From Schmidtea polychroa (Eukaryota): a stretch of DNA of 64,000 bases. Location of the stretch: assembly GCA_044892525.1 (NCBI GenBank), contig CM097885.1:6512001-6576000 (forward strand), given 5' to 3'. The notes under the pieces were generated by a model. It saw only the letters and a list, made by a program, of their open reading frames with translations. It was not told the DNA's origin and made no database searches. The position numbers and the translations under genes are program-made. Below are positions 1 to 45,564 of this stretch, in pieces; the first letter of the stretch is position 1, and every line of letters begins with the position of its first letter.

Positions 1-856
1 GACTATGTCCATATTCTGTACTCTCCACACTAAGTTTCTAGAGTTGAAAGGTTTAGTTTGCAGGTTGTTCTGGAAGCTAATTGTAGGAGTTGGGCTACGT
101 TCGACAGTGTCTAAATTATGTTGCATGTCGGTATCTACGTTTGCTGCAGGCGGATCTGCATCCAAGTTTGGGTCAGTGGGAAAATTACCTACATCCTCTT
201 CATCTTCTAGCTCCATCAGGCAATCTCTTTGGCTCGAATAATAGTCTATGTCATCTTCATTGTCGGTGGAATCGTCTTCCGAAATTTCACCATTTTCTAA
301 CCGCTTCAATATTCTCTTCATCTATTCTGTTCGCATTTTTGATAAATTTCTATAATAAAATAAAAATAAAAGTAATTCCAACACCAAGCTATGCAGAAAA
401 ATAATGAAACGGAAGTTCAAAAAGTTTTTATAGCTAAAGAATTAGTAGGTAGGTTTTATGTAGGGCGGAATGCCTGAAGTATCAAAATTGGTACTCACAA
501 AAATAGAACTAGTTTCTTCAAGTAAAACATGCACTCGCAAAAAGTAATTATATCATAGGAAAAATAATATATTCACTTACCTCAAAAGTATTTATATTCT
601 TCAGAAAAAGAAAATATATCAAATTTGTATTTAACAAAACTTTTAGTAAAATGTGTTTACTTGTTCACTTTGCCGCGCAAGTAATATGTCATAGATAAAA
701 TAAAACAATAATGACATTTGTTTTTTTTAATTTCGTTGGAAAGAATATTATACAAAAGTAAAATACGAACAGCCAACCTATAAAAAAAACTAATAGTAAT
801 GTGAACATTCGGTTTAAAAGATTGGTATCAAAATTGAAACTCTAGGTTATTAAGGG
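1..856 (-). mobile_element. piggyBac transposon 5' fragment (copy 1)
   Basis: Minus-strand end reads TTAA|CCCTTAATAACC (TTAA at 857-860). Identical to the copy at 30471-31494, which encodes a piggyBac N-terminus. Confidence 0.75.
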
Positions 857-2133
857 TTAATAAGATAATTATATGAAGAAGCTTTGCAAAATCGCAGATA
901 TAAAGAAGAAGAATATTTAACAAAGTCCATCAACACTTACGTGATACTGGGAAGTTTTAGCAAAATTTAATTGACTGTGAATGAATCCGAGGGAACCATT
1001 TTAAGAATGCTTGAAAGAAAATCCTCAAATACTTTGCCAACAGATCGTTGTGAATAGCATAAATCAAGTTATTTCAACGTTTAGAAAATTTTGAATCAAA
1101 ACTGTTTGAAAGAAATTCAAACAATTCAGGGATCGATCCCAGGTGTGTTGGAAAGAGTTGTGGCGATGTCTCCAGTTTCGCCACCACACTCGGTTCAAAA
1201 AATTATTTTTTCATATTTATTTTGTAAGTTAATTAAAAGAAATACTAATACACACAAAATACACAAAATATTTATTTTATAATAGTAAAACAAATTATAA
1301 AATAGTTGTTATATTAAAACAGAAACATTGAAATTTGTTTATAAAAATAGTTTTACTTGGAATTTGAACCATGTTTATTATTGATGTTTGTTAAATAGAT
1401 TCCCACTGTGCTATCTAAGCTGTTGTTTTTTACACTTTAAATTTTTATTAATTTTAAAAATATTTTTTTTGAAAAGTAGTAGGGAAATTTACCAAGAAAG
1501 TCATCTCTGTTGATGAGGTCGTAGACCGAGCTAAACAATATTCTCTCAAATGTTTTTAAGGCGAAGAAAATAAAAATAAAGGAATAAAAAATGTGTAAAA
1601 CATAAAATAAAAAATAACTCATCAAAATTATTTAGATTGCTTCAAACCATTTTCTGAAAAAAGTATGGATATTATTTATAATTTAAATTCTAAAAATCTT
1701 GATATGTTATTACAAAAATCATAAAAATCTTCTTTGGAAAACTATGATAACAAAAAATGTATTTTGTCTGATTTAACAACAACATTTCCTCATTGAAATG
1801 ATTTGGTTGAAATTATACAAGAAAAGAATGATTTGGAAATGTATAATGATTATTATCTCACTTGTTGTAGATCCCACTACATTTTATTTTTTGAACCTTG
1901 GGTTCTTTCATGTTTCACTTAATGAGATTTTGAAATATATTTATTAAAAGGTTTGCAAAAATACATTTTTATAGCGATAATATTTGCGCAGGTGCCAAAT
2001 CAGAGAATTTTCCAAGTCTCAAGAAATGGAGTAGTGAAGATATATCTAAGTGACTCAAATAAGTCCCAAAATTTTCCAAGAACTTTTCCCAAATATTTTC
2101 CAAGTCAATAAAATTATTATTTTTTTCCAATTA

Positions 2134-2333
2134 GTGAGGGTTCTACCTCCTCCAGCCCAAAGCCATTTTCATCAAATTAATAAATTATTTATCGAGTAAT
2201 TGGTTTTTACTAAATACTAGGCAGTAAGTTTTTCATAGGTACTAAGTTTTTTATTTTTTAATTTAATGGTGTACGTGGTCTGACAATGTGATTCTTATCT
2301 GGGGTCTTTACGTTAGAGGGGTAGAACCCTCAG
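2134..2333. mobile_element. Tc1/mariner-type MITE, 200 bp (duplicate at 32772-32971)
   Basis: TIRs gtgagggttctacc / ggtagaaccctcag, flanked by TA on both sides. Confidence 0.7.
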
Positions 2334-3999
2334 TACTATTATTTATAATTTGAATCATTAATAAACAATAACAAAATTTAAGGATTTAGTCATTTAATAT
2401 TTACCAAACTAACATGACAACATTAATATTCAATAATAAATATAAAATAAAGATCAAGGCAATCAAATATCCAATTACAGTTACTTCACAAATGACAATG
2501 CACTAATACAAGAATTAGGGATGTTAAGACTACACTAGCTATTTGTGTAGATAATTGTTGCGGACTTTGAATTGAAATTTCCTTACTAGGTTTCAAATTT
2601 TGTTTATTAATACCACTTTATACTTCAATGTCTTCAAATAAAAATATAAAACTTGATCATTGCTATATTTCCAATAGCTTTCTCTTATCTGTTTTAAATG
2701 TTTTTTTCTTTTTTTATGCAATTATATATAAATACAATTTAAACACAAAATAAAGACAGACTAGAAATAACCAGAGAATTATATCTATACGACTCTTTCG
2801 TCTTAAAATCACCTGACATACACGTAGCTCAATACCAGTACATCCTTTATAAACTCATTTTCCTATGCCTAGCTTTTATTGCAAAATTAAAAGAATCCTT
2901 CCTAGTAAATAACTATATATTTAATTAAAAAAGCAAAGTATATTATAAAAAAAATATTCTTACAAGTGTTTGTACAAAGTGTACGAAAAAACATGCTTAT
3001 CTTGCAATTTTGAATAACATATTTTATAAAGAACTAGTATCAAAAGAAGCAATATTTCACAAACTTTACAGAAAAATTCGAATAACATAACAAAACCAAA
3101 ACATTAACAAACAGGGAAATATATAAAGTCAATTCCTAATAGAGAGAAAGGCCTACAAAATAAATTCTAATAAAAAAACTGAAAGATATGTCAGAACAGA
3201 AAATTTGTCCTTTTCACAGACAGAAAAGTTTAAAATTTAAAATTCTCCACAAATAACAACAAGAATAATAATTTACCAGATTGGATTGTCTGGCATGGAA
3301 TGATGAGTTGTTGGAGGAAATTTTGGGAAATTAATTATTATCCTCCAGAAACCAACATATCAGTAACAACTCAGCCACTGTGTTTGAAAATTTTCAATTA
3401 AAAAAAACCCAATAATATTGGGGATAAATGCAGCTATAAATAATAGACATGAAGCAATTAAAGTCAAACCGGTAATATCGGAATGTCTCCACATAAAAAT
3501 AATTCTTTATTTATAATAAATTGAATATGACAGCAACTTCTAATTTTAATTTTCAATTAATTACTTTTACTGCTACTCGATTTTTGTAAAATAAATATAA
3601 ATAAAATAAATATATAAATAATTTAATTAATTAATAGTAATGCAAAAATGTGCAGTGCAATACATACAAAAATATACATTAAACTACACGAACTTGAATC
3701 AAAGAAATAAAATATTATAATTGCTCATAATAAAATTATTAGAAAATAATAATAATAATAATTGTTAATTAGAAACACATCATTATATAGCTCTTCATTG
3801 CATGATATCTAAAAGGAAGTTTATTGGTTTAATAATTATTGATACAAAATATCTGCACAAATACATATATTACAACATTCAAAAACTAGCATCAAACATC
3901 ATAAATAAACTCTGATCTTGAAACTACGATTTTGACATGTTATTATGTAACAGGTTTTTTTGATTAATTGTGTAATATTTATTTATTATTCTTCTTTAC

Positions 4000-4000
<1 letters not shown>

Positions 4001-4050
<50 letters not shown>

Positions 4051-4069
4051 TATTATTATTATTATTATT
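4001..4069. repeat. (AAT)n followed by (TAT)n microsatellite, self-complementary
   Basis: Read directly; same length in copy 2 (34639-34707). Confidence 0.9.
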
Positions 4070-5793
4070 GTTATAAAAATTTTCAAACAAGTAAATTATA
4101 TGATAATCCCTAATATTATGTTCCTTGTTTAACATTTAATTTATGATGCTAACAAGAAATCATTTTAATAAATGAAAATATTTGTTTGTTGAATAATAAA
4201 TAAATTTATGTAATTAATTTTCTGATAAGTAAAGCCTCCGTAAATTTCAGATCTGAATTATTTCGCTATATTTTTTCACTTAACATGATACAAACTTCTT
4301 TATAACGAAATGTAGGAGCATTTTGCACTTAGAACAGTTAGAAATGTAGCAATAACCCAACTTCAATTTGTAATTATTTTAAATTGAATAAAATTACATA
4401 TTTCTGTTATAATATCAAAATATTGTTTAATATTAGTAGAGAATATTTCATATTTTGATTGACTTCGTGTATGTTTTGACATTAGGGAAATTTAGGGAAA
4501 TTCATCCTATCCAAAAGTGACAATTTAATGAATGGTATAAATAAAAAGTACTTCCAACGCAACTTAAATAAATACAATATTGCAGGGATTGTATAAATTA
4601 ATGGAAAATGTATAGAGAATTTTGTACAAAACAAAAAATGTAAAAATCAATATTTTTTGAGGGAAATGCAGGAGGCAAATGAAAAGACAAAATGAATATA
4701 ATAATTTCAAATCGATAGTGGGTCCTTAGTAAAGGTTATTTCAAAAATACAAAATAATTAATTAATTAGTTGATATAACAAACAGGCAAAGAGTTAGATG
4801 ATTTTAGTCAGATAATGCAATTTAATAAATGCTTGATCCAGAGAGAACCTTATCAAAGGAGGGATAAAATACAGTTAAATCCCAGCAAATTTAAAGGAAG
4901 TTAATAATTACAAATTTATTAAAAGTATGTATTGAGAATGTATTAAAAGGAGAGTTGTAAAGCGCATCAATTTTGAAATAAAAGGTTGGTGGTGGAGTTA
5001 CCTACGATAAAGAGGAAAATGCAATGTTCTATGTTTTACATGTTATTTGTTATAAAAAAAGAAAAGTCAAAATTCTCTCCTCACAACAATAGTATATGAA
5101 AATTATAACAGTATAAGCTATTATATTTAATGAAAATGGAAAGCCTTCTATGTACCATGTTAAGTGCTACAATGAAAATGACTTTTTTTTCAATCTGAAT
5201 GATCTCTGTCGGTAATACAATTGCTTTCTTTTTCTCTAATTTCATTTTTTATTAAAACAAATTATCATTTGTACCCAGAATAAAAATATTATAAAATGAA
5301 CATTTTCAGAAGTTCTTTTCTTCATGACTTTCAAATGTCTGGAAAGACCTTTTTAATCTTTATATTAATGTTTCTTGGCATGAAATGAACTCTTTGTTTA
5401 AACAAAATAATAACAATTCAATTAAGATCGAAAAAAAATACATACATACTTAATAAAGTTCTTTGTCCAATGACAATTCACAGTCCCACATAAATATCAT
5501 TAATTAAAACAAATAAAATTATTTTAATTATGAAAATATTTCAAAAAAGCGTCAATTAGATATCCAGCATAAGATACTTATCTCATCAACTTCATTAAAA
5601 CAAATCTTTTCAGACGAAATTCTTAAAGAAAATTGTAAACTTTTACTAATTAAGTATTTATTACCGAATTTTACTGTAACTTAATTCTCAACAACCGTTT
5701 AAAAAAATAACAATTTATCGTAACCAAAAACTTTCTTTAAAACGACAACTATAATTGTTTTAATAGAAATAATTTATAAACTGTTTTCCCCCA

Positions 5794-5950
<157 letters not shown>

Positions 5951-5954
5951 TGAA

Positions 5955-6113
5955 CAGTACAAGCTTTGTGATACCCAGTGCAAACCCCAATAGTAGAAAT
6001 TCGATCTTTTGACTCTCATCAGTACTATGTAGGAGACGTTAAGATTTCAAGTGAGACATCCGACAAAAAATGTTACAACATTATTTGCACTGGTTATCAC
6101 AAAGCTTGTACTG
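5955..6113. mobile_element. MITE, internally deleted allele
   Basis: TIR cagtacaagctttgtgata...tatcacaaagcttgtactg; the 446-bp version is at 36658-37103. Confidence 0.7.
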
Positions 6114-6699
6114 TTTATTTTATTCAAGTGAGATAATTATAAATTGATGATTACTTGGTAGCAGCATTAATTAAAATTTAAACAATTAAATGATAATTTA
6201 AGCCCTTTGCTACGAATAATATATTTAATACAAATGAAAAAATTTCAAATATAAGATAGTCCTTTTCAATTTCATGGATTTTAGCTTCTTTTATTTTCAA
6301 AAAAGCTCTTTAATTTTTATTTCCTTTTTTTTACTTCTCATTGGTCAATAATAATAATAAACTTTTTTTCTCAAGCATATAAAATTTCTAAAGATGTTTT
6401 AATTAAATATCCTTTAAAATTCAAAACGACTAACAAGGAAAAATTTAAAAATTTTTAAAGCTTCTATAATTAGCTCGTAGAAACCTAATTTATTAAATAC
6501 TATCTTAAAATATTTATAAAATATAGTTTCCAATAACTATTTATATACGGAATTTAAATATTTTAAAAAATGTTTCTATTTTGATTTTTAAATACTAATG
6601 ATCTTCTAAAATTATATTTTATCTATTTTTCTATATTATTTTATATTATTATTTTTAATTTTTAATTTAATTTTTTAAAAACTTTTCTCAAGGTAAGTA

Positions 6700-9290
6700 A
6701 CAACAAATCAAACTGATGATTTCAATGATTTCTTCTTTAGTGTTGATAGTTGGCCGTCTGTTTATTATGAGAATTGCTTCCTTAAATCTGAAATTTTTTG
6801 TGATGTTTCCATTGGCTAACTCTTAGCCGCTAAGATTTTGATTAAATTATTTTTTCTTTCATTTCTTGGTTGACTTTGTTGGAGATATTTGTATACCGAT
6901 GATTTTCCACCAGGATCTAGATGTTCTTTAACTCTTTGGTACAAGGTCCTGAGCGGGCTTCCAATGTATATTTCCTTTTATACATCGCACGTGAATCAAT
7001 AGACAATGTTTTTTCGAAAGCACAGATCTTTCGGTGTCTGAAAGTTTTCCGTTTGCAATTGTTTTTTTGTGTTCTTTTCAAGAGCTTTTCTCAATGTCCA
7101 AGATTTATGTGGTATACGAATTGGAAGGCTAGTGCGTTTCAGTTCTTTTAGGATCTTGAAGTCGAGTATGTAATTAATGTATTGGATATTCAGATAAAAA
7201 TATTTCTTTTTCATTTTGTGTGTTATTTCCTTAGATATTTCTGGAGTAGAATTCATTCTTTCAATGTCCTTACCTTGATATATGTTTCTGTATAGGATTT
7301 CATTGAAGTTTATTTGTTGATTATAGTTTTAGTTTTCTTCAGTACATCGATTGGGTATCCTTTGTTTCTCGTTTTATAGCACGTGTACTTTCTTTAAGTA
7401 TGGAAGCGTTTATCTTTGGTGCATAAATATTTTTTTGCGAGTTGATTTTCTGTGAAACCCGAATGCTGGAGTATCTAATTCTATTTTAATTTTTAAATCC
7501 AGTAGATTGATTAATTAATCTTCTTCCGGATATTCGATTTCGAACTTAATAACTCGTTGAGCCGCATTGAATGTATGAAATATTTCCTCCGCTTCTTTTC
7601 TGCTTTTGGTCGTGATGAAGATATCATCAACATATCTTGCATAGAAACCGATGGGTTGTATGGTACTCAGTGTCTGTCCTTCGAGGTTATCCATAAAGAT
7701 GATTGCTAGCAATCCTGATATGCTAGAACCCATAGGCAGACCTTTAGCTTGTTTATAGATATTTTGCTCAGTATTCTCGGTATTCATTTCCTTTATTAAA
7801 AAGTTGCTTTCTCTTATTTTTTTTTATTTTTTTTAAATTTCTTTTCTAAACATTGAATAGCATTTTTTGGATCGATAGATGTGTATAGTGATACGACATC
7901 AAGACTGAATGGGTATCTAATTTTGATAGCAGGACCTTCTTTGTGAATTTTTAATTAGATGGTTGAAATTGGGAAGATCAGAATGCTTTGTGACGAAGCT
8001 GTTGGTTATTCTGTTGTTGAGCTTCATTTCCAAAGCAATGGCTTTCCATACTTTGTTAATCGTCATTTCGATGGTGTTTGGTGACATGCGGCTGAGTCTC
8101 TTGTATGTTTCGATGTTGCCGAAGTGTTCATAACCAGCTTCACAGTAACAAAATTTCTCTATAATGCAAAATTCTCCCCTTGTCACTTGTTACGTAAACG
8201 TATGGTTTCTTTTAAAGGGATTTTAATAGTGCTTGTTCCTCTTTCGTTATGTTTGAGAGATATGGTTTTCTTTTGTCCTTCTCAACTATCTCCATGATTT
8301 TGTGGCAAACCTTTGAAAGTGTTGAATCTAATTCTGCATCAGGATTTGGTTGATAGAGTTTATCTATGTTTATGTATACTGGGAGTTTTTCTTCGTTAAT
8401 TTCATGATGTATTATATTGTTCCATTTGATCTGATACGCAATGCGACAAAGAGCTGTTTTGAAATTGAGGATAGCTGCTTTATCTATTTCACTGTTTATA
8501 CTGAACTTTAATTCTAGTGAAAGTATTCTTTTCTCACATTCGGATAAACAATTTGCGAGGTCGGTTACCAATTCTTTGTTTTCTCTATTTACTGTAATGC
8601 TTACGTTTCCATCCAGTGTTTCATTGTTCGTACTATAGCCTGCTCTGAGCTCCTTTTTTCTCAAAAGGTATTTGATTCTTTTGTCAAATGCCAGGAAATA
8701 ATGTGCTTCTGCTGTCATGAAAGCTTGTCTTTGTACCCCGTAGATCAATTCTTTTGGCTGGTTATTCAAATACGTTTTCAAAATATTTTCTTGATTCTAT
8801 TGTTCCCGATGAGTTTCTGCGTACATACTTCTAATTAAATTTGTTAATATATACTCTTTGATGTCTTTATTTCTCTTAATGTTTTGATCTTTGTTGAGAA
8901 TCTGAGGTAAATGGATGTTGTCAATTGTTGTAGGATAGATATTTGTTTCTTTATAATTTCTTAGACTTTGAACTTCTCTAAAAAAATTTGCCGAGGGGAG
9001 TGGGGTATCATCTACTCATGTGTTTTATATTATGTGTGCTGTGTTTTTATGTAAAATTATTTTTCCATCAATTTCTCAATTCCTATAATAAAACTTTAAC
9101 CTTTCGGAACATTAAATTTTTACACACAGGTAAGTTTGTTTGTTTCTTTAATATAATTGTATCGAGTTTTTTTTAAGATTATAGAAACTTTTATATTTCG
9201 GATTTAGCTGTAATACTAACTTTACCAAATCATGCTGGTTTAAATAGATATTAGGCCACTGGTGCTTGAAATGAATGCTAATGCTAATGC
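6700..9290 (-). mobile_element. Penelope-like retroelement (RT + GIY-YIG endonuclease), decayed, copy 1
   Basis: RT motifs QAKGLPMGSSISGLLA and YARYVDDIF (7515-7787). GIY-YIG NIVY*FTC..YIGS..RTLYQRVKEH (about 6920-7015) and KEAILI..RPTIN (about 6735-6785). Many stops and frameshifts. Confidence 0.9.
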
Positions 9291-9302
9291 TAATAATAAA
9301 AA

Positions 9303-9349
<47 letters not shown>

Positions 9350-9777
9350 GTCCCGCGAGAGTAAATACTCACCTCTGAATTAACTTAAGCTTGATATGTA
9401 TATTATAAGGTTTTAAAATTTGGACCTTGGACCTTTCAAAAGTATGCCCATAATACTCACCTTTGAATAAGCTTTTGTTTGATATATACATATTATAAGG
9501 TTTCAAAAAATTCGAAACGTTTTTGACCTATTGAAGGTTGAGGACAAACCATACACCTTCCAGGGTATAATTATTTTATAGTGCTCTTCAAGACCTTCCG
9601 AATGATACCCATATATATAATTTGACCCTTTCAAATTTGAATATAAGTATTTTGTAATGAGTCACTCCGTTGAGTCATCGATGCCTTTGTTTACCAATGA
9701 GTCATGGAGCACACTTCTCTTTACTCTTATATCAACAAAACTGTCCCATTTCATTTAATCTGTTGATTAATTTTAAT

Positions 9778-11040
9778 TAATATTAATTAAAAAATTTGAA
9801 TGTAAAAATAAATAAATATTAGTATAAAAATAAACATAAATTACAAAAAACATATGTAAAGCAAATTTATATATATATAAGCCATATTCTTTCGCTTTGC
9901 TTTATTGAGATTTCATTTTAATATAAAATTATTTAAAATTCTTTTACGAATAAAATTCTTTTTAAATAAAACATTTATTTTGGACATTAGACAAACATAA
10001 AAAAATGTAAAATGAAAGCGTTGACCTTGATGAATCATGTTTTTGTTTAAAAAGTTTTTTTACCACCGGCGGGAGGTGGGGGTTTGTGAGCCAGCGGTGA
10101 CATGATATAGCGGTGACAACCATCTACTATTAAATTATTTTAATATTTTCAGTTAAAAAGTTTACGTGAAAATTATGTGAAAATTTTAAAAAGTTTTAAA
10201 TTTGCATCAAATAAATATCTTAGAAAACTGAAATTCTGTAAAAATAGGCAAAGCCAATCTAAAACCTTTAGAAAATTTGAGAAAAGCTCGCTTTATTTGG
10301 TAAATAGAAAATGTAGCAAATTAAACAAATATTATTTTGAACCAATAGAATAAGCAGAAAATGTATAAAAACAGATTTCATTTTCAACAATTTGAACCAG
10401 CAATGCAAATCAATAAATCAATAGCTTAGGAAATATTGAAAATCTATAAAATCTTTTAAAAAATCTCAATTTTGCACTTCGTTATTAATTAATAATTATA
10501 AAAAAACCTAAAAAAATTAATTAGTTCAAAAAAAACCAAAATTCTTTAAGGGGTCTCACAAAACAGTCAAATATTTACTTTTATTCAGATCTCATTTAAA
10601 CAAAATTATCTAAAATTCCACTAACAATAGACAAAAATAAAGAAATGTAAAATGAAAGAGTGACAGTCAAATGAATGTCAGGTAGAAATTGTCCGCTTAT
10701 AACAGATCTAATTTGGAAATGGTGTAAAATAAATATTTTATTATTGCTACATAAATGCTACCAAAATTGCATTTATTTCGTATTTTGATAAAAAAACAAA
10801 TATTAATTAAAAAATTGAATATAAAAATAAATAAATATTAGTATAAAAATAAACATAAATTACAAAAAACATATGTAAAGCAAATTTATATATATATATA
10901 AGCCATATTCTTTCGCTTTGCTTTATTGAGATTTCATTTTAATATAAAATTATTTAAAATTCTTTTCATAAAAACACATTTAAATAAAACATTTATTTTG
11001 AACATTAGACAAAGATAAAGAAATGTAAAATGAAAGCGTT
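9778..11040 (+). repeat. Local direct repeat of about 245 bp (9778-10022 and 10798-11040), remnant of a ~1-kb tandem unit
   Basis: Both read aatattaattaaaaaa...ttctttcgctttgc...aaatgaaagcgtt. Copy 2 keeps more of the unit (41087-43110). Confidence 0.85.
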
Positions 11041-12011
11041 CAAATATTTGATAAACTCAGTGAAAATGAGAGATTTTGTGACTCTACAGAAGGCTTTGAT
11101 GTTGAAATGTTCAATGTTTCTATGGATATTATTGTTGGGAATGTGATGGAGATTTCAAGGAACTCCTAAAGGTGTAAATTTGGTTGCCGCCTTGAGACCA
11201 GCAACATTATAATGATAATGATAATTTGGCTGGCCTTCAAGGGATTCTATCAAATGCATTTTCACCTTCAATTATAAGAAATGCTCAGTTGCAATATTAT
11301 TATAATAAATTCAAATAAATGATCTGATAGAAATCTAACATGGCTGCCATAATATCTGATCCGCATTGATATAATAGATCAGATAATGACAGCAATTGTG
11401 AGATCCCCTGATGATGTGTGTTGCATGCTCATAATGACAGCTGTTCAATAAATAATTCAATTTCATATCAATATAATGCTAATTTTCATTGATTTTCTCA
11501 TTTATTGGTGGCGGCAATTCCGATATTATTGATATTTGAGGGAAATTGGTTGAGAAATATAAAATAGCAATTGAAATCTCAATTTGTAAACAAAGCAGCG
11601 TAACAATTGAGGGGAAATTAAAATGCAAAAATTTCACTTATCGGAAAGAAAATAAAAATTAAAAATGATTCCAAATAGAAAATAAATATTTTGAATATAA
11701 AATGAAAAAGTAAAAATTTCAAAATATTTCAATTCAAAATCACGAGCAACAATAAAAATTGATTCAAAACAGCTCAATAAATGGATCTGCACAAAGCTCA
11801 TTAAATGCTGATCCGATGTGATCCAATCAGCATTAAATGCGGTTACAGCTGATCCACAGCATCAATAATGTTGCAATCAGTTTATAATTGGGCAAATGCA
11901 TCAATAACTGATCCAGACAAATTGATCCACCAGCACAAGGCAAATAATAAATCAGATAAAATCCAAAATAAATCAATTTTTATTGAAATGTTTTTTGTAA
12001 TTTTCTCGTAA

Positions 12012-13507
12012 TTATTCAATTCTGCACCTGAGCAGCAATTTATCACTTTTGGCTGCTAATTTATAGATTGAGTTTTCACCATAATAAATCCAAATTGGAA
12101 TATTTCTGTCATTTGACGGTTTCCCCCATCCATTACGCTTGCTCATAAATGTCATTGGCTTGCTCATAAATGTCATTGACATGCTCATAAATGTCATTGA
12201 CTTGCTCATATAAATGCTGCCATTTGCTGGATCGATCACATCGATTGTCACCAATTGTTTGAACGGCCAATCCAATTGCTCATCATTTACCCCACGCATG
12301 AAACAGAAACCAGCTGAAATAAACAAATTACCCCAAATGCGCACCGCCAAGCACATTTTGTAACCGATTGGCCCGGAATAAAATGCCTCGCTGTAAATCC
12401 ATTCATCTTCCTTTTGTTGTGATAATTTATCGATTTGCCATTCAAAAAATCCATAATTTATATATTTTTTATTTGGTAATTTTCTTTTAATGGGCCGAAT
12501 ATCATTGGCGCATTTCGCCATTTCAAGTTGCAACTGAATCTCAAATTCAAACATTTCAGTAAATCAATAAATCACCTTTTCATTCTTCTGTTGCAGCTGC
12601 TGGTCGCATTTCTCTTTCATTTCATCAATTTGCTGTTGATATCTTGATTCAATAACCTCAATTTGCTGTCTGATCTGCTTTGCATCAATGAAAATTCAAT
12701 AACAAATCAAATCAATAATCAAACTTGATTGATTGATCCAATATTTGTCTCCATCTCCATTCTCAATGAGCGATTTTCATTCTTCACTGCAACCATTTCC
12801 TCATTCAATTCTTCTATTTCCTCTCTGTTCTCCGCCTCTTTCCTTTCAATATTGCACAATTTCACCTACAATCATAAATATCAATTAAATCAATTACAAA
12901 TAAAATATACATTGATATTATCAAATTGTTGTTTGAATTGCGTCATTTCTCCTTTCAATTCGATAATTTCGTTACGCAATTTCATATTCTGATCTCTCAT
13001 TGCTTGCATCTCATTGCATAAATTACTGATCTGATCAATCAATAATTTGCTGTGGCCTTCATTGTTCTCATTGAGATGGGCTTTCAATTTGTCTTTTACC
13101 ACCTCATTCATTTCACATCCAATTCTATTGAATGGGCATCTGATTGGCTGCTTGTTGCATGTTCTCATGTGGCTCTCCATCATGCACAACTCGGTTTTGA
13201 ATTCACAATTTTGCATTGGACATTTTACAATAACTTCAGATATTTTTAAATTCACTGAATGATCCACAGAAACATCTTTAGTGAAAAGAATCGTTAGAAC
13301 TTCACAATATTTTGCTGCTCCTGGACAGAATTTATCTTTTCCTTCCAAATAATGCTCAATGCAATCAGAACAAAAGTGACACCCGCAAGGAGCTTGGCAA
13401 GCTTTTATCATTAAACATTTGCATATTCTGCACATCAAATCATTGCTGATTTCATTATCAAATTCAAATTTATTTCTCTTCATCATTTCCCATATGCTTG
13501 AAAACAT
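12012..13507 (-). CDS. TRAF-like protein (RING, 2 TRAF-type Zn fingers, coiled coil, MATH/TRAF-C), about 452 aa; exons 13507-12911, 12865-12725, 12674-12576, 12533-12012
   Basis: RING CRIC..CGCHFCSDC..CP, Zn fingers CPMQNC..H..C and CPFNRIGC..H..H, MATH motifs FYSGPIGYKMCL and MRGVNDEQLDWPF. GT-AG introns of 45, 50 and 42 nt, all phase 0, give an open frame. Alternative start at 13537. Confidence 0.92.
12138..12210 (-). repeat. In-frame 21-bp tandem repeat (3.5 units) in MATH exon
   Basis: cttgctcataaatgtcattg(g/a) units encode MSKSMTF-MSMSMTF-MSKPMTF-MSK; absent from the paralogue. Confidence 0.95.
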
Positions 13508-16500
13508 TTTATCTAAAATTAACAAAATTTTCAACATTTTACAATTTTCACAAATTATACTTATTATATTAATTATTTCTGACGTTTACAATTTCAATAT
13601 TTATAATTTGTATTTTAATGTAGATAAACAAACAATTTATAAATATTGTATTTTAGCTTTGAGTGTAATTCGAAATTTTATTAATGTTAATTTTCATTGT
13701 TTTTTTATTTTAAATCTTACAAAATTATTTAAATTAAAATTTGATAACAAAAAGTAAAATTTTGATGGAAATTTAAATAACTTTTTTAAAGAGAAAATCA
13801 AAATTAAAAATAGGTCAAAATATAAAAATTAATATTTTTCATAAAAATTTAAAAAATTTTATCTAAATTTAGAATTTATTTGAACAGATTAGAAAGAAAT
13901 TCAAAATCATCAGAGCAAAAATAGAAATTTAACAAAAAATCAATATTTTTAATTCAAATACTTTTTAACAAAATAACAAAAAATTTTCATTCAATTTTTA
14001 AAAAAAATGATATGAATAAAATTTTACTCTGTAACGCTAAGCAGGTTAATAATGTATTCAGGAATTATGGGGTTTTAGCCTTTGATCTAATGATCTCGTT
14101 ATGGTTATAAATATTGGGAATGATCCACAATTGGATAAGGATATTTCAATGATCGAAAAGTTAGAATATAGTAAAATAAATAAATCAATAAACCTAATAT
14201 GTGAAAATGTTAAAAGTCGAAATATTTTGTCAGACTCGAATGTTTCAAATCAATATTTGTGAAAATAAATAAATTATTAAAACATTCATAAATCATAATT
14301 ATAAATAATAGTTATTTCCTCTTAATTTTGAAATTTCTATATTTAAAATGTTTTTATAGATAAACAGATATTTTATAAATATTGGTTTTTTAATGTTAAT
14401 TTTTCAGTGTTTTTCGAATTTATTTGTAACTTAATTTCCAAAATTTTGTAAAAAAATAACATTAATATTTTTTTTTAAATCCAAGAAAATTATTTAAATC
14501 AATATTGTTATTGAAAATGTTTTTGATAAGAATTTTTTAATAGCAAATTTTTAAAAAGATTTTGACTACAAAATGAAATGTGCCCAAATGTCATTTATAA
14601 GTTAAGTAAACAATCCAACAAACCATAATTAATAACCACCAGAATCTAAGAGATCAATTAAAGAAAAACACGAGATTCATTCATGCGCATCCAACAGTAA
14701 GGATTTTATTTATGGATTTTATATTTATGTTTGGTAAATCGATATGCAAATTTCTTTAATTTTTACATTTTACTTCCTTGAATTCATACAATTAATAATT
14801 TTCACTAGAGCAGGTCACAGGCATTGAGAGAAGTGAAACATTTAGGTTACGAAACGAACTCATATCATGACCAAAAATTCCGAATTTTGTTTTTTAATGA
14901 TATAAAAATGAAACTAAAATTTAGTTTTGAATTTCAGAGTGAGTTGAGATAGAATCGTATGACACTATGAAACCCAGGAATTGTTCACTGAGACGCAGAA
15001 AATATATGCCAAGAAAGAGTTTAGACTAGAAGAGAGTGAGTTAGATATTGATCGTGAATATAGACGAATGATATTTGGAGGCAGCGGCGTTAACATCAAT
15101 CAGGAATGAGTGGTGCAACTACTGTGATAGCTGATATAGCCGTGCTGTGGGGCCCGACCGACCATAAAAAACAAAAATCATGACAAGTTTAGCACGTGCA
15201 GCCAGTCAGAAGGACGTGATGAGATGCAATAAATTTCTAGTTACGAAATTAACATTATTGACATTACAAACGAAATTCGATTGTTGTTTAGCTGTTCTTC
15301 ATAATATATTATGAATATGTTCTTACTGTACATTCTGTTTTGTGCGTAACATGAAGTCAATTGTTTATTTGGTAAATGCCTGTTATACGATGTTTTAAAT
15401 TAATTAAATTAAAAACTCATTAAAATGTTTAAAAGTGCACGCTTCAATTTTCTGTTGTTGTTTTATTATAGGTTGATTAGAATTATTTAGTTTACTAGAA
15501 ACCTTATTTATTGGGCAAATCATTTCCTGAAACCAGTGAAACCCAATTATCAGCCCAATTCACAATAAGTAGAACATCATTTATAACATTAATTAAAAAT
15601 AGAATCATTGAAAGGAACATTGGAATTATCTGATGCATTATCAAAATCAATCCAATGGTAAATTTCATTCTCAACCGAAGCAGGCATCGAAATTTCTGCT
15701 TTTCATTTGATGTATTTCGCGCTTGAAACTTCGGATTTCGTTTTGGCTGGGCAACAACTTGACCAAGCGGGAATTTTCATTTAAATCATGTTCAATATTT
15801 AAATATTTGAATATTCAAACAAATAAAACAGCTGTTATAGAAAATAGAACATATTTGCTAATCAATCACGCGTTTCTCTTTATTAATTATAACAAAGCTG
15901 CAATTCATACCGCACTGATATCATTGATCAAGACGGGGAGCGGCAGTAATGGACCCGCAGAGAGCATGATGGGGCGAGTAGGTGTAAGACAGCAGCTCAC
16001 CTCCCTCCTTGCTCTCAATGACAATATACAGCACCAACATGGCAGCTGTCATGGTTACATTGATTAGATTCATGACATTTGGATAAGTTTTATTTAGTTA
16101 TATTTATCTTGCTTTTTTAATTGGCTAAGAAATAAATTAAAGTTTATAACAATGATAAATTTGATATTTCTCCTGATTAAAAATAAATATGAGATTAGAA
16201 TAACTTATCTAGTTATTCGGATATAGTCAGATCTGCTGCTGGTGCTCAGGCAATGAAATCAATATCGCTGGAGTTTCAAGTTCATTTAAACAAGAATTAA
16301 GTGCAGCATGGGTTCAATGGGTAAATTTCGCCAGGACGTGACGCGCTACACAGCGAGGTTTTGGTTAGGAAGCGCAGAAGGCTCGAGTGGAGGAGCAAGG
16401 AATCATTCGTGATCGCAAGATCACGATCCCAGAGCAGACACAGCAGGTTATCGAGTTGCGTCGGTGGATCCACACGGGCACAGGAGTTGGTCGAGCAGAG

Positions 16501-17627: not shown

Positions 17628-20600
17628 CAGGGGCCTGCCGAAGTGACTTTTTTGCCGAAGTCCGAAGTCGAATCAAATGTCTGGTGCGCGAAAATAATTT
17701 ACGGACCTGTACCTACTGCAATGACCTACGGCGATTCAAGACGCATATTATACCAAGAAAGGAATCAACGCTAACCAAAATTATAATAAATTGTAATAAC
17801 TACCTTTTATTATCAACAGTTATTTAAAAAATGTAACATTATTGATAATTTTGATATTATTTTTATTAATAATTAATAAAATGAATCATATCAATAAAAC
17901 TAAAAAAATTATACAATGGGTGATAATACAAGATATTGAGAAGTGTTCATTTTGTTGTCTTTTGAAACATGGATGTAAATTATATAACATAGATCTGTTA
18001 GCAACAAGCAAAGTAACGTGAAACGAAAAAATAAAAAAATACATGTGTTTATATAAATATATACATCTTGTCCGATGAGTTAATAGAATTCATTAGTTTA
18101 TTAGTAGTCAAAACGGACCACATCGAGATTTTTCATTAAAAATAGAAGCATCTCAGTTTTTGCTGGTGTTAACTTTGATCGACGGTCATCGCATATAAGA
18201 CCAGCCAAACTGAAGGTTCTTTCACTATCCACGCTGGAAGGAGGAGAAGCACAGAATTGTTTGGCGACCAGTGCAAGTTGAGGATATGTGTATTGCCTTG
18301 ATTTCCAATATTCTATTGGATCTTTTGGAGGTGAGTGTCGTTGGTTGCACGCTTCCGTTAAATATGCATCGAGCTGTTGTTGGAGATTACCGGAATCTGT
18401 AAAGTTGGATTGTGTAGCTCCAAGCATGTCGTCGTAGTAGCTATCCAAAGCAGATGTGGCTGATGAAGATGATGTGGAAGGTGTTGGGCCTGCTGGCACT
18501 TCATCACGCGAGTTGTCCGTCGACGATACAGCATTCATTGCATTCGCGTTAAAGAGACGAAGCTTGTACACTAGATCCAAAGCAGTAGATATTTTCAACG
18601 TTAGCATACCTGCGGCTGAGATCCGCAAGCATTTCAGCACGCATTGTTTGAATGCAGAGGTCGTCACCCTCCTTTGCTGGTCTCGTCAAAACTGCCTGAA
18701 GTACACGCACACTTGGAATAATCATTCCACTTGTTGCAGTTGACAAACTAGCATTCCGCGTTTCCTCTTCAAATGGACGCAATGTCGACACGACCCTTTC
18801 GATTAATTTCCACTGATTGTTTGTCAGATTGGTGACTTCGTTGTCTTGGAGATAGAGAGCTATTGCTTTTCTCTGTTCGATCAAACGTTCCAACATATAA
18901 AACGTGGAGTTCCTCCTTGTCTGTACATCTTGTATCAGGCGGTGGACGGGATATGGGTTTCCGGCAGCATCCGGCTGAAAAGAATTTTGAATCTCTTCCA
19001 GTCGATCATTGGCTAATGGTGAATGCCGGAAGTGGGTTACAATGTTGCGGGAAGCTGCAACTGCATCAATGACAGCCTTTTGCGTCTTCTTTAATCCTGC
19101 ACCCAACTAACTGAATCGTGTGTATGTAGCAGCCTAGATCTGATAAGCCTGCAACACTAGCGGCCTTCACCATGCTTGACCCGTTATCGCGAACGAAGGT
19201 TCCACGTCTGCCTGCATCAATGTCCCATTCATTCAACAATTCCAATATGGTATCTCCAATCAGCTTACCGGTGTGATGTCCGTTGATTCCTCGAAGTGCC
19301 AGCACCACAAATTTGCGTTCCCAATTGTTGTCGATCCAGTGTGCTGTCAAAGAGAGGAATCCATTTAGGCTGTTGGTGGTTGTCCACACATCACTCGTGA
19401 AGCACAGAAGTTTAGCATCTCCGATGAGATTCTTGACTTTCGACTTCACTGCAGCAAACATGTCCGGTATGATTGTTCTTGAGAAATAAGTCTCGTCTGG
19501 AATGACGTATCTGGGCACCAATTGATGCAGAACACGTTGGAATCCTTCGTCACTGACAATCGAAAATGGCTGACTATCCAAGGCTATCATCTCACCAATT
19601 AGTTTCGTTATGAGGATCTGACGAGGATGGCCCGATTCAAATGGACGTGTACGTTCAATACATGCATCCAGAGTTTGTAGCTTTGGCTTCTTAGCTGCGG
19701 CATTGAGTTGATTTTCTTCCTCTTCAGCTTGTCGTTTCTTTGCAGAATCACACGCCTGTGAATATTCTTTGTACTTGTCCGGATGTTTAGAACGTAGGTG
19801 GTTGATTAATGTTGTTGTTCCGTATGATCTTGGATCCTTGCCGCCACGTTTCATTTTCATTCTACATGTCCCACAGTTAGCAAAAGATTCATCCACAGCG
19901 TTGATTTCAAAGAAATTCCAAATTTTACTTCTCATAGCATTAGCCATATTTATTTAATTTCATTTATTTTTAATATTTAAATCTAATTTATTAATTTTGT
20001 TGAAGAAATATATTTAAAATTTTCGATTTCAAATTTGATGGGCTTTTATATATATTATGTACACTGGGGAGGGGTATGGAGCTATGGAGATTTTCGCATG
20101 TGATGATGTGGAAAGTGAATCGGATGCTCAACTGGCAGTTCTGCTCAGTCTAATATTTTACCTAATGAATAAACACACAATTTTATGACAGAAAAATGAC
20201 ACAATTATTTCTATATAATTTTATAATAAGTATTATTGTCGATAAAGTCGATAGGTACGGTATACGAACATCATCGTGCATGACATTGACATATGCACTC
20301 GGTTGAACTGCATACACGCGCGTGGCATCTTGTGGTGCTTCCATCAGGCATGCAATAAGATTGAAGAGTCAACATACAGAGACGATAGATGACATAATAA
20401 ATTTAAATGTGCTCAACATTAATTTAAATGTGTAGATTATGTGGTATTTCTCTCTTGACAGTAGTCAAGTCTAATAGTGCCCAAGCAATAAATTTCGTAC
20501 AGAGTAAAATTATTATTAGGCCTATTAGATTGCGATCGGTAATTGATTGTGGTATTACAGTAGCCTCAGCCTCGCAAGCCATGCCTATTCAAGCGCCTGC

Positions 20601-26968: not shown

Positions 26969-29900
26969 AGTAGTTAGGTGCGTACGGCAGCAATAGGGGT
27001 GGGGTAAAAAATATTGCAACTTTTGATCACATAATTGCTGATTTTTTTTTCTGGGATTTTCAATACAAAAAGCCAAGGATAAGTCAGTATTATTTGGGTG
27101 GGTCTCCTTTCATTAGAGAAGGTGGTTTACATTAAAAAAAGTATAGTAAATTTTTAAATTAAAGCAAATTATGGGTTCAGATTTTTCAATTAAAGTAAAT
27201 TATGGTTCGAAAATTTAAATATAAAGTAAATGATGGGTCTAAAAATTAAATTAAAGTAATCAATGGAATCAAATAAGTAAATTATGGTCCAAAAAATTAA
27301 ATTAAAGTAAATTAAGGTTCAGATTGTCATTTCTCAGGCGCTGTTTAGCAGGTAGTTAGTAGCCCGCTTGCAATTGCAAGTCGTTTTTTTTGTTGTTTTT
27401 TGATTCCGCAAATGTTGCAACTTGTTTTTTTTGTATTGGAAATTCTAGAAAAAAAAATAAGCGTAGCTTACTCAACAACAAAAAAAACGAGTTCCAACAA
27501 TTACGCAATCAAAAAAGCAAAAAAAAACGAGTTGCAACAATTTTACCCCGTCCCCCTCCTCCCCGGGGGGTAATTGTCCCAGGGCGCTACTAAGAATTTC
27601 ATGTTGATTGATTAAAAATTTTAAGTTATATTGGTGATTTTAATTGAATTTCTTGATAATTTGCTAAATTTTTTAAATTTTAAATAAAATTTAATTTTTA
27701 ATGACTGTTAGGTTAATAATCAAGTAATAGGTTTAACTTTAGATGACTTTGTAATGCATTAGACTAAATAATTTTTTTCAATAATTTTCTAAGAATATTT
27801 ACACATATATATTTTGATCCTTATGGAATTAAACCAACAAAAGAAGTCGAGGAATATTTAGGAGAAGAATACACTTGGAATACTCTACAAGTTCAACCTG
27901 ACAACACTAAAATATTTGGAGTTTTGTGTTTATATGTTTTGTATAAATTAAATCAAGTTATTCCTCAAATTGAAGATGAATTTATAAATATAATTCAAGA
28001 AATCTATAATGATTTAGAAACTTGTCATTAAAAGGTTTTCCAAAACTTAATAGAATAAGTTTTTAAAATTTACAACTAGATCTAATCCGTCCTGGGATTC
28101 AAAAGAAGAAGTATCTAATTTAATTTCTTTTAAATTATAAAAAGTAATCAATACTTACATTGTAAATTTTCATTTCGATTTATTGACACATTTATTCGTA
28201 TTACCTAAATTATTAATTAATTAAATCAATAAATTAAAAATTTTGTTTACTTTTTCTTTTCAAATTTCCTTTAATCTTCGATTTTAAATTGTCTTCATTA
28301 ATATTATCTAAATTAATTATTAAATTAATTAATAAATAAATTAAAATTTACCAAATTCCTGAATTTTTTCTCAGACATTCATAACGTTTTCTATTAAAGA
28401 ATTCATTTTTAAAGGTTAACGATTTGTTAAATGTGACTAATGATAGATTATTGTTTATAGATTATCATTGTTTATAGATTATTATTGTTTATAGGAACAA
28501 ATTCTAACCAATCAAGAGCAAGGAATGGTAGGAAAAAAAGTAAATATATTGCGTTGCGGTATTTTAAAATTAAAATTTATTTTAAAAACACATTTTGACG
28601 CTAAAGTCGACTTATGTAACAAAGACATAATAAACTTATTATTTCCTACAAATATTTCACCCACCAAATACCTAACTAGAGATGATATATATTGATTGTT
28701 CATAAAAGCAAACTTAATCACAAATTTCAGTATATCTTACAATAATTTTCAAGTAAATTTGAAGTCCTTGGTAAAGTTGACTGGTTTCTTAGCAAATGTT
28801 TTTTTAAAGTTCGTCAATGTGTAAATTGAGATATTCTTAGAAAATTATTGAAAAAAATTATTTAGTCAAATGCATTACAAAGTCATCTAAAATTAAACCT
28901 ATTACTTGATTATTAACCTAACAGTCATTAAAAATTAATTTTTATTTAAAATTTAAAAAATTTAGCAAATTATCAAGAAATTCAATTAAAATCATCATTA
29001 AAACTTTAAATTTTTAATCAATCAAAATGAAATTCTTAGAAAATATATGAAAAAAATATTTAGTCAAATTCAATTACATTACAAAGTCATATCCTATCAC
29101 TTGATTATTAACCTAACTGTCATTAAAAATAATTTTTTTTTAAATTAAAAAAACCAATCAATAAAAATGCATCCAATTATCAAGAAATTAATTAAATTTA
29201 TCTTAGAACTAACTATAAATTTTTAAATTTTCATTTAATCCACATGAAATTAACAAAAATGTTAAATATTTCCTAAAACTATCAACTTAAAAAAAATTGC
29301 TATTGAATGTCTTAGACATCAAAATTTATCTAAATAATCTTTCAAATTAATTCATTAAAATTGAAGAAAACACGCTCTATTTTGTCATTAAATTCAATTA
29401 AAATTAAATAAATCAAAATAAGAACTTTGATAAAAAATAATATTCTAAAATGGTAAGAATTAACACTGTAGTGTTAAATGGAAAGGTAATTATTCTTTAA
29501 ATCTAATTAACTTTGTCATAATTTCTTTAATTATTACTACCAATTCTCATCATCTTTCAAAATTTATTACTTAATTTTAAATTGCATCATTTAATTTACT
29601 TCATTTAAAATTTTTGCATTTAATTTAGCAAATATAGCATTTAATTACTTTTTTTTTAAATATATCTCTTATTATTATTTCATAAAAAATCTATTTAAAT
29701 TTATCATTGAAAATTATTTCAAAAAAATTTGCATCTCAAATTGTCAATTCTCATCGTTGATAGTTTTTCAAAATATCTGACAATAAATTATTACTGTAAT
29801 TTTCAACTTTTTACTTAATTTAAAAGTATTACTATAATTTAAAAATTTTAATTTTAATTTAATTCTATTTAATTTAATTTACTTAATTTTAAAAATTGGA

Positions 29901-30290
29901 ACTTAAATTACTAATTTGAACCCTTAATTTACTTTAATTTAAAATTTTAGACTTTATTTTAGAACTTAATTTAAAACTTTAGACCATAATTTACCTATTT
30001 ATCAATAATTTACTTTAGTTCAATTTTAGATCCTTGATTAATTCAATTTAAAAATATAGACCATAATTTACTTTAATTTAAAATTTAACCATCAATTTAC
30101 TTAATTGAAAATTTTAGACCATAATTTTCATGTAAAATTGTCATTGAAAAAATTTTCAATTCTCAGGCGCTGTTTAGTAGGTATTTAGTAGCGCCCTGGG
30201 ACAATTACTCCCCGGGGAGGTGGGGGGGGGGGGGGTAAAATTGTTGCAACTCGTTTTTTTTGCTTTTTTGATTGCGTAATTGTTTTTACT
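26969..30290. mobile_element. Rearranged Polinton/Maverick remnant
   Basis: AGTAG(T/C)-type termini (26969, 27358, 27589 reverse, 30187), inverted ~30-bp minisatellites (27140-27320 vs 29860-30130), ~210-bp inverted repeat, adenain fragment. Confidence 0.6.
27807..28031 (+). pseudogene. Adenain-like (C5) cysteine protease C-terminal fragment of Polinton
   Basis: IYFDPYG...WNTLQVQPDNTKIFGVLCLYVL fits YFDSYG..Q.Q...S..CG..C. Catalytic Cys reads TTT (Phe). Confidence 0.75.
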
Positions 30291-30470
30291 GATTTATAGT
30301 CAAGATTTTAATAAATACAATGTCAATTGTAAAAAAATCAGAGGTGAAATTGAAAGAAGTTTCTATTGTTTGCAGTAATTTATTAACATTTAAATTATTA
30401 TTCGTTTTAAAATTATTAAATTTAAAGGTTAAAGGGAATTTTTCAAATTTTGAAATGAGATACATTCATT

Positions 30471-34637: not shown

Positions 34638-34688
<51 letters not shown>

Positions 34689-36438: not shown

Positions 36439-36516
<78 letters not shown>

Positions 36517-36524
36517 AATACTAA

Positions 36525-36656
<132 letters not shown>

Positions 36657-44107: not shown

Positions 44108-45564
44108 TTATTCAATTCTGCACCTGAGCAGCAATTTATCACTTTTGGCTGCAAATTGATAGATTGATTGATAACCAAAATAATTCCAAATTGGATCATT
44201 TCTGTCATTTGACGGTTTCCACCATGCGACAGGATCAGAGTATTGATCACGGCAATATGACTTGCTCATATAAATGCTGCCATTTGCTGGATCGATCACA
44301 TCGATTGTCACGGATTGATTGAAAAGCCAATTTAATTGCTCATCATTTGCCCCACGCATCAAACAGAAACCAGCCATAACCCCATTATCCCCAATCCACA
44401 CCGCCAAGCACATTTTGTAACCGATTGGCCCGGAATAAAATGCCTGGCTGTAAATATCTTCATATCTCTTTTGTTGTGATAATTTATCGATTTGCCATTC
44501 AAAAAATCCATAATTTATATATTTTTCATTTGCTATTTTTCTTTTTTTCGACGGAATTTCATTGGCGCATTTTGCCATTTCAAGCTGCAACTGAATCTCA
44601 AATTCAAACATTTCAGTAAATCAATAAATCACCTTTTCATTATCCTTTTGCAGCCGCTGCTCGCATTTCTCTTTCATCTCATCAATTTGCTGCTGACATT
44701 TTGATTCAATCACCTCAATTTGCTGTCTGACCTGCTTTGCATCAATAAAAATTCAATAATAAATCAAATCAATAATCAAACTTGATTGATTGATCCAATA
44801 TTTGTCTCCATCTCCATTCTCAATGAGCGATTCTCATTCTTCACTGCCACCATTTCCTCATTCAATTCTTCTATTTCTGCTCTGTTCTCCGCCTCTTTCC
44901 TTTCAATATTGCACAATTTCACCTACAATCACAAATATCAATTAAATTAATTACAAATAAAATTTACATTGATATTATCAAATTGTTGTTTGAATTGCGT
45001 CATTTCTCCTTTCAATTCGATAATTTCATTACGCAATTTCATATTCTGATCTCTCATTGCTTGCATCTCATTGCATAAATTACTGATCTGATCAATCAAT
45101 AATTTGCTGTGGCCTTCATTGTTTTCATTGAGATGGGCTTTCATTTCGTCTTTTACCACCTCATTTATTTCACATCCAATTCTATTGAATGGGCATCTGA
45201 TTGGCTGCTTGTTGCATGTTCTCATGTGGCTCTCCATCATGCACAACTCGGTTTTGAATTCACAATTTTGCATTGGACATTTTACAATAACTTCAGATAT
45301 TTGTAAATTCACTGAATGATCCACAGAAACATCTTTAGTGAAAAGAATCGTTAGAACTTCACAATATTTTGCTGCTCCTGGACAGAATTTATCTTTTCCT
45401 TCCAAATAATGCTCAATGCAATCAGAACAAAAGTGACACCCGCAAGGAGCTTGGCAAGCTTTTATCATTAAACATTTGCATATTCTGCACATCAAATCAT
45501 TGCTGATTTCATTATCAAATTCAAATTTATTTCTCTTCATCATTTCCCATATGCTTGAAAACAT
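44108..45564 (-). CDS. TRAF-like protein paralogue, about 439 aa; exons 45564-44968, 44922-44782, 44731-44633, 44590-44108
   Basis: Same domain order and splice sites as copy 1, open frame. MATH exon is 160 aa. Alternative start at 45594. Confidence 0.92.

Follow-up and report, generated by a model that had tools for sequence, protein, structure and literature searches.

The window analysed here, a 64,000-nucleotide (nt) stretch of AT-rich DNA from the planarian Schmidtea polychroa (positions 6,512,001 to 6,576,000 of contig CM097885.1, called C1 below, in a genome of 781 Mb), carries two four-exon genes for TRAF proteins, gene A and its paralogue B (Table 1). They are spaced 32 kb apart within a tandem segmental duplication, the copies of which are 99.8% identical over 9.6 kb and 95.1% identical over the TRAF gene. 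In the gene A model, the intron 2 acceptor was shifted by 3 nt, following contig joints. The original prediction for this DNA was that the exon encoding the MATH domain is hypervariable in otherwise near-identical genes, such that a constant E3 ubiquitin ligase scaffold would carry a variable sensor evolving under positive selection or patchwork conversion.

Comparison of the two genes bore out most of this description. Exon 1 differs between A and B at 4 of 199 residues (6 of 597 nt), the 3' flank at 1 of 246 nt, and exon 4, which encodes the MATH domain, at 41 of 160 aligned residues (72 of 483 nt). The roughly 30 substitutions and one indel counted earlier by hand correspond to 31 of 149 residues outside one loop plus a one-codon indel, and the quoted patches of change were found in the sequence. 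All 10 differing codons within the last 40 of gene A are nonsynonymous, as claimed, and 4 of the 10 carry multinucleotide changes; two of the 10 sit in a poorly aligned loop. The introns had been called nearly identical; they differ at 5 of 137 nt, which is above the exon 1 rate, and exon 3, a putative coiled-coil exon, has also diverged (11 of 99 nt; 7 of 34 residues as modelled). The loop described as wholly different is real, and its origin is a 21-bp in-frame tandem repeat present in 3.5 copies in gene A. The proportion of synonymous differences (pS) between A and B is 0.019 in exon 1, 0.118 in exon 2, 0.180 in exon 3, and 0.082 in exon 4 without the loop, where the proportion of nonsynonymous differences (pN) is 0.114, giving a pN/pS of only 1.4. 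The finding named in advance as a refutation, a raised synonymous rate in the MATH exon through an exon swap from an old paralogue, is thus true in part for this pair, and the opposite was found family-wide. The pairwise ratio of nonsynonymous to synonymous rates (dN/dS) between A and B was dropped as proof of selection, being weak and confounded by conversion.

Gene A is a mosaic of a B-like exon 1 and 3' flank with a tract, from about 12700 to 12250, that resembles loci L014 and L015. It differs from L014 at only 1 of 99 nt in exon 3, compared with 54 of 597 nt in exon 1 and 125 of 230 nt in the 3' flank. The MATH tree groups A with L014 (support, 98/94), and sliding windows and a MaxChi test (p = 0.0005) support the mosaic. 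The tract ends are approximate and were taken from the sliding windows because single-breakpoint MaxChi chose the 3' boundary (12057 to 12033). The loop repeat has one unit fewer in L012 and is absent from B and L014. The predicted patchwork conversion is supported by this tract, as well as by the recombination tests described below, and the comparison of sequences attributes much of the contrast between A and B to gene conversion. Since gene A carries an L014-like exon 3-4 tract, the A-B pair alone cannot show selection.

The genome holds at least 150 close copies of these genes. A search with the MATH exon gave at least 150 matches (the best 150 of 819 candidates), mostly on C1 at 2 to 17 Mb and 257 to 268 Mb, and a search with exon 1 gave at least 152 matches among 1,396 candidates. 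A Pfam-model search (best 150 of 1,551 candidates) returned a largely different set, adding clusters on contig C2 and dispersed retroelement-like copies. A word-indexed protein search yielded one relative among four candidates; database relatives at 50 to 55% identity vary at the same positions as the gene A family. Our sample consisted of the 30 best loci and 80 loci hand-picked from the MATH exon and exon 1 matches; intact fractions are biased upward because the hand-picking skipped apparent duplicates and most copies with stops. With gene A included, the 111 sequences gave 90 with an intact MATH domain, 60 complete four-exon models, and 56 distinct genes, which form a near group (n = 33; C1, 2 to 17 Mb) and a far group (n = 23; 20 genes at 258 to 266 Mb and 3 at 63 Mb). 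A third set, one tight clade of 18 C2 genes, came from 40 further loci; the branch that divides it from the C1 genes exceeds one change per site. The sequence evidence places gene A in a TRAF family that is specific to this lineage and evolves by birth and death.

Selection was analysed with our own GY94-type codon model, not codeml (F3x4, FastTree topologies, and naive empirical Bayes posteriors, with a site cut-off of >0.95). For the MATH exon, twice the log-likelihood difference (2dlnL) between M2a and M1a was 356 in the near group (omega, 6.3 at 14% of codons), 281 in the far group (omega, 10.4 at 18%), and 150 in the C2 subfamily (omega, 6.05 at 18%). The corresponding values for exon 1 were 5.4, 14.4, and 8.0 (the C2 value from 16 of the 18 genes), and M0 dN/dS values of 0.30 and 0.41 indicate purifying selection there. 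The MATH exon signal persisted for the near and far groups, respectively, in the comparison of M8 with M8a (333 and 279), with a framework-only tree and F1x4 (415 and 367), and with the alignment restricted to 120 gap-free columns under a model permitting double and triple mutations (115 and 124). The recombination test was significant in five of six data sets, the exception being near-group exon 4. Twelve neutral simulations with far-group parameters, in which recombination was made extreme by reshuffling the tips every 1 to 20 codons, gave 2dlnL values of 1.9 to 21.9 and omega values of 1.9 to 3.2; selection in far-group exon 1 (14.4) and in exons 2-3 (17.4 and 15.8) was rejected as lying within this range. 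In a tree-free cross-check, sites picked in one C1 group had, in the other, pN/exon pS ratios of 4.5 (confidence interval, 3.1 to 6.3) and 8.5 (5.0 to 15.0). Family-wide, pS is lower in exon 4 than in exon 1 (0.107 versus 0.256 and 0.040 versus 0.082), and pN is higher. The predicted positive selection is therefore supported at the level of the family, with dN/dS far above 1 at MATH codons aligned to the peptide-binding face, and we regard diversifying selection on that face as very highly probable.

Where these codons lie was determined by alignment to TRAF2 (to TRAF3 for the beta-7 register) and by strand. Exon 4 matches Pfam PF21355 with 62.4 bits (cut-off, 27.4), and the MATH model of paralogue B, which has eight strands (predicted local distance difference test score, 85.6), has TRAF2, TRAF1, and TRAF3 as top fold matches (E = 2e-9 to 3e-9). 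TRAF2 residue numbers were counted along the chain with a constant offset. The numbering reproduces the residues named in passages of PMC6125299, which place the receptor hot spots conserved in TRAF1/2/3/5 on the equivalents of strands 2, 3, 4, and 7. The two C1 groups share 11 selected columns out of 160, with 7 others selected in the near group only and 9 in the far group only (p = 1e-7). Those common to both include the equivalents of R393, Y395, S408, and G468 together with the beta-3/4 and beta-6/7 loops; the far group adds the equivalents of F410, I465, and A466, and the near group those of the serine triad. In the C2 subfamily, the selected positions include the counterparts of R393, Y395, and F410 as well as residues in the same loops. 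On strands 2, 3, 4, and 7, 7 of 22 residues are selected, compared with 0 of 28 on strands 1, 5, 6, and 8 (p = 0.0017), and selected residues alternate with invariant ones along the strands. Over 14 groove sites, which were chosen for variability, far-group and near-group genes differ on average at 69% and 75% of amino acids, respectively; the corresponding averages are 9% and 18% for the remainder of exon 4 and 5% and 16% for exon 1. Read together, the 14 residues form a groove word that is distinct in 53 of the 56 genes. The positions aligned with TRAF2 hot spots (R393, Y395, F410, and the serine triad) take six to nine residue states among the 56 genes, and three MATH loops differ in length across the family. 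Judged by these residues, the family does not keep the conserved hot spots with which TRAF1/2/3/5 bind Px(Q/E)E motifs; conventional TRAFs of the same genome retain the canonical groove motifs.

The scaffold proved constant in one respect and variable in another: exon 1 is under purifying selection, as the prediction required, and a block that follows the RING occurs as four divergent types. Each of the eight RING cysteines is invariant in 56 of 56 genes; one of them stands where a His ligand is usual, and the final one is shifted compared with its place in TRAF6. The best sequence matches of exon 1 are the N-terminal domains of TRAF6 and LNX (E = 7e-10 to 7e-9), the RING matching TRAF6 with E = 7e-9, and TRAF6 is also the best fold match of the N-terminal model (E = 2.6e-7; template modelling score, 0.43). 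Zinc finger 1 (C96-C101-H113-C117) is kept in 56 of 56 genes and zinc finger 2 (C124-C131-H144-H152) in 55 or 56 of 56, so that 7 of the 8 ligands are invariant overall. These two zinc fingers are fewer than in TRAF2-6. Exons 2 and 3 have a coiled-coil-like composition, and residues 149 to 168 are helical in the model. The four-type block comprises 23 codons (residues 66 to 88), and the model has a helix at residues 83 to 91; far-group types I and IV differ at 40.6% of bases in the block and at 1.3% in codons 90 to 185, and type I is present in both C1 clusters, 250 Mb apart. In passages of PMC5702613, the equivalent region of TRAF6, the RING end and linker helix, is part of the dimer and ubiquitin contact. 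The four types have the appearance of long-standing balanced variation at a dimer interface, and our guess is that the block steers the choice of dimer partner.

Table 1. Genes, duplicated segments, and MATH and RING features of the window (positions count from its first letter).
Feature	Position	Strand	Description
Gene A exon 1	12911..13507	-	199 codons: RING variant, linker helix, two TRAF-type zinc fingers, putative coiled-coil start
Gene A intron 1	12910-12866	-	45 nt, GT-AG
Gene A exon 2	12725..12865	-	47 codons, putative coiled coil
Gene A intron 2	12724-12675	-	50 nt, GT-AG
Gene A exon 3	12576..12674	-	33 codons, putative coiled coil
Gene A intron 3	12575-12534	-	42 nt, GT-AG
Gene A exon 4	12012..12533	-	Putative coiled-coil end and MATH/TRAF-C; 173 residues and stop
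RING	13304..13432	-	Eight Cys: C26, C29, C41, C43, C46, C49, C61, C68
Four-type block	13244..13312	-	23 codons (residues 66-88), RING end and linker helix; gene A is type II
Gene conversion/recombination tract	~12250..12700	-	Gene A like L014/L015 inside, like B on either side
21-bp in-frame tandem repeat	12138..12210	-	3.5 copies; lengthens beta-6/7 loop
Selected codons, beta-2, beta-3, beta-3/4 loop, beta-4	12309..12401	-	Both C1 groups: 12401, 12347 (R393), 12341 (Y395), 12329, 12326, 12317 (S408)
Selected codon (TRAF2 F410)	12311	-	Far group only
Selected codons, beta-6/7 (serine-finger) loop, beta-7, next loop	12072..12146	-	Both C1 groups: 12146, 12092, 12083, 12080, 12074
Selected codons	12101, 12098	-	Far group only
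Paralogue B (L001)	44108..45564	-	Same four exons; exon 1 45564-44968, exon 4 44590-44108
Segmental duplication copy 1	1..14077		Starts ~3.6 kb before the window
Segmental duplication copy 2	26983-46145		Tandem to copy 1

Several family members depart from the gene A architecture. L058 (C1:3856449-3857393) encodes two different MATH domains, one after the other in a single open frame, and L063, L056, L038, and L050 have long or acidic insertions in groove-flanking loops, including a poly-Asp run in L063. Eight loci at 14 to 17 Mb of C1 (L007, L010, L016, L019, L022, L045, L047, and L049) carry 84 to 495 nt extra in the exon 3 region, which suggests duplicated coiled-coil exons and a variable stalk length. 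On C2, at about 105 to 124 Mb and 1 to 5 Mb (L141 to L173), further TRAF clusters of like architecture form a distinct subfamily. Among the retroelement-like copies are dispersed MATH-bearing open reading frames (ORFs) of 4,791 codons; they match the planarian Burro giant retroelements as described in passages of PMC6431247. Dozens of near-identical intronless RING-TRAF ORFs of 487 codons occur across all four large contigs and are probably carried by a retroelement. L180 (C1:21540582), which keeps a canonical groove, and L179 (C1:20651615) are examples from these two sets of ORFs. An origin of the family from retroelement-borne TRAFs was unsupported by one tree (midpoint root, no clade test).

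Mobile-element remains lie in the window at 7515-8796, 18101-19953, 30471-30959, 38363-39942, and 57325-58554; they include a hAT element with a BED finger and dimerisation domain and, labelled by eye, reverse-transcriptase-like fragments in both duplicate copies. Also among these remains are one ORF resembling piggyBac and another resembling gag, the latter with zinc knuckles (labels again by eye). Nested inverted repeats in very AT-rich DNA at 27131-30284, one pair of which is 209 bp long at 96%, are probably nonautonomous transposons. A Polinton-like block of about 10 ORFs, likewise labelled by eye, adjoins TRAF genes in both C1 clusters (L138 to L140 upstream of the window and L123 to L124 in the far cluster).

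Evidence for expression came from contigs of 4 of 13 listed sequencing runs, compared at 88% likeness; the runs were taken as probable RNA, none being recorded as such. A 45-nt skip with CT..AC ends, corresponding to intron 1, occurred in runs X1, X2, and X6 and not in X7, and a 50-nt skip with the same ends, corresponding to intron 2, in X1 and X2 and not in X7. X1 and X2 are probable RNA runs from two studies, and X6 is a run of another organism. No intron 3 joint was found among the 15 joints listed of 31. Lack of expression had been named as a further refuting outcome; the TRAF family is probably transcribed and spliced, a result that pertains to the family and not to gene A itself.

An expansion of TRAF genes in planarians has already been published, and the groove selection appears new. 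Passages of PMC6109357 and PMC7586133 report 121 MATH-domain transcripts in Schmidtea mediterranea, and these passages cover counts and expression, without clusters, selection, groove mapping, or conversion. Searches of the literature on planarian TRAFs, which covered few subscription papers, turned up no report of such selection, hypervariability, or clustering, and passages of PMC4091423 have nothing on selection. Other sources, likewise seen as excerpts, describe more than 30 intestine-enriched TRAFs (PMC7117911), some TRAFs induced via TBK1 (PMC13563047), a changed infection outcome upon traf2-1 RNA interference (PMC4993586), and a Dugesia TRAF2 that responds to microbial patterns (PMC7958881, a review).

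The sequences show clusters of many genes in which dN/dS exceeds 1 on the putative ligand face and purifying selection acts elsewhere, the pattern that marks diversifying immune-recognition repertoires. The family seems rather likely to be a germline-encoded intracellular repertoire of variable specificity that would recognise foreign proteins. In the mechanism that we propose, segmental duplication multiplies the genes, gene conversion shuffles blocks among paralogues, and slippage alters loop length, all three being visible in the sequences, and diversifying selection drives apart the peptide-binding sheet and three flanking loops. Because sheet and loops have diversified on a conserved scaffold, each paralogue probably grips a different short peptide motif, by analogy with the TRAF2, TRAF3, and TRAF6 structures. 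The motifs would most likely be carried by fast-changing foreign proteins of microbes, viruses, or mobile elements in gut and barrier cells. Binding would then cluster the TRAFs and dimerise their RINGs, and ubiquitin would be attached to the target or to a signalling complex, leading to degradation or to TAK1/p38/TBK1-type signalling. More tentatively, and at a probability that we put well below even, the repertoire could be antibody-like: hundreds of germline genes would each encode a self-contained ubiquitin ligase with its own groove, conversion would reshuffle the grooves against the four-type RING-dimerisation block that sets pairing, and mixed trimers and dimers would allow combinatorial recognition and tagging of microbial, viral, and retroelement proteins.

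Clusters of MHC, NLR, and fish finTRIM-type genes also combine clustered paralogues, a conserved effector, a selected ligand face, and gene conversion. They are built from other domains, whereas the variable part here is the peptide groove of a cytoplasmic adaptor. Vertebrate TRAF2/3/5/6 share with the family the order of RING, zinc fingers, coiled coil (putative in the family), and MATH domain as well as the MATH and N-terminal folds; however, mammals have six conserved genes where hundreds are found here, and the planarian proteins differ in having two zinc fingers only, an all-cysteine RING variant, and three length-variable loops. The hot spots conserved in TRAF1/2/3/5, according to passages of PMC6125299, are the most variable positions here. 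The nematode and plant MATH-BTB and F-box adaptors resemble the family in their birth-death evolution, in positive selection in the substrate-binding and not the ligase-binding domain, and in a proposed role in foreign-protein detection (passages of PMC4334554), for which the evidence is described as indirect in a part of PMC1866355. Unlike those adaptors, the planarian proteins have a RING in the same chain, a putative TRAF-type coiled coil, and a separate flatworm origin; in Pfam scans of exons 1 and 4, only RING, MATH, and a weak match to a coiled coil came up, with no BTB or F-box.

Some results weigh against this interpretation. A neutral hot-spot model absorbs most of the selection signal, with omega >1 adding only 19 and 24 units, and pS is raised at the selected codons (0.195 versus 0.080 and 0.076 versus 0.029), in part through averaging over multibase paths. 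The L432 and C469 equivalents are not under selection in the codon-model scan, and of the 31 residues outside the loop at which A and B differ, 20 are in columns that are not selected. The RING is atypical, scoring 16.4 bits with Pfam zf-C3HC4, below the cut-off of 21. The splicing evidence refers to the family at 88% likeness in runs guessed to be RNA and not to gene A, and the planarian studies cited concern TRAFs at large, not tied to the gene A subfamily.

The fairly good fit of the hot-spot model, the mosaic structure of gene A, the significant recombination tests, and the broken copies (21 of 111 fail the intact-MATH filter, some for other reasons, e.g., a second MATH unit) would also fit a view in which gene conversion between old paralogues, locally raised mutation, and a relaxation of constraint on redundant copies sufficed to explain the variation. 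That explanation is largely refuted and in our view very improbable: exon 4 has a lower pS and a higher pN than exon 1, synonymous differences are not clearly in excess at conserved codons beside those under selection (0.018 versus 0.068; 0.035 versus 0.023), the recombination simulations did not exceed 22, and the variation is confined to one face of the MATH domain. Still less credible is that A and B are alleles of one locus, a balanced polymorphism placed in tandem by assembly error. The 99.8% identity of the duplication copies and the occurrence of identical copies on small contigs (L029 on C144 equals L027) would fit such an error; however, large insertions distinguish the duplication copies, at least eight near-identical exon 1 copies with several different MATH exons within 0.9 Mb exceed two haplotypes, and the family-wide result is independent of the pair.

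Two further explanations accept the selection and differ in what drives it; we consider each unlikely, to about the same degree. The grooves could track an equally diverse host family, such as receptor tails, adaptors, or self/non-self markers, with the TRAFs as ordinary coevolving adaptors. Known TRAFs do grip host receptor tails via the groove (passages of PMC6125299), and two planarian TRAFs are required for cell survival in uninfected animals (excerpts of PMC7586133). Yet inspection by eye of 127 other ORFs of at least 130 codons in 364 kb around the clusters, in which small exons would be missed, recognised no coduplicated partner gene; the repeated ORFs resemble transposon proteins, and omega values of 6 to 10 at the same sites in three subfamilies fit conflict better than host-host drift. 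Alternatively, pathogen or retroelement mimics could hijack the groove, with host copies evolving to evade them or soak them up. To judge by their titles, solved structures show viral LMP1 and ORF3a bound to TRAF domains, and the Burro-like MATH ORFs in the genome make this element a possible opponent. Escape predicts, however, a sweep to one resistant state in few genes, whereas 53 distinct grooves were found among the 56 genes kept, and the MATH domains carried by retroelements cluster with those of conventional TRAFs, apart from the gene A family; a decoy role overlaps with foreign-protein recognition and is inseparable from it by sequence.

TRAFs are normally few, conserved adaptors with fixed motif preferences, and their expansion in planarians has been published but remained unexplained. 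The recurrence of strong groove selection in three subfamilies indicates that these proteins are in a molecular conflict. In planarians, cGAS and clear NF-kB homologues were reported as not found (part of PMC13563047), and an antibody-like TRAF repertoire, if it exists, could replace sensors that planarians appear to lack. The selected residues name which ones to swap, making the question testable in a tractable animal. Foreign-protein recognition by this family would, if true, provide a second case, independent of the nematode and plant MATH-BTB proteins, in which the MATH fold serves variable recognition, and the family would constitute a natural library of E3-linked peptide binders.
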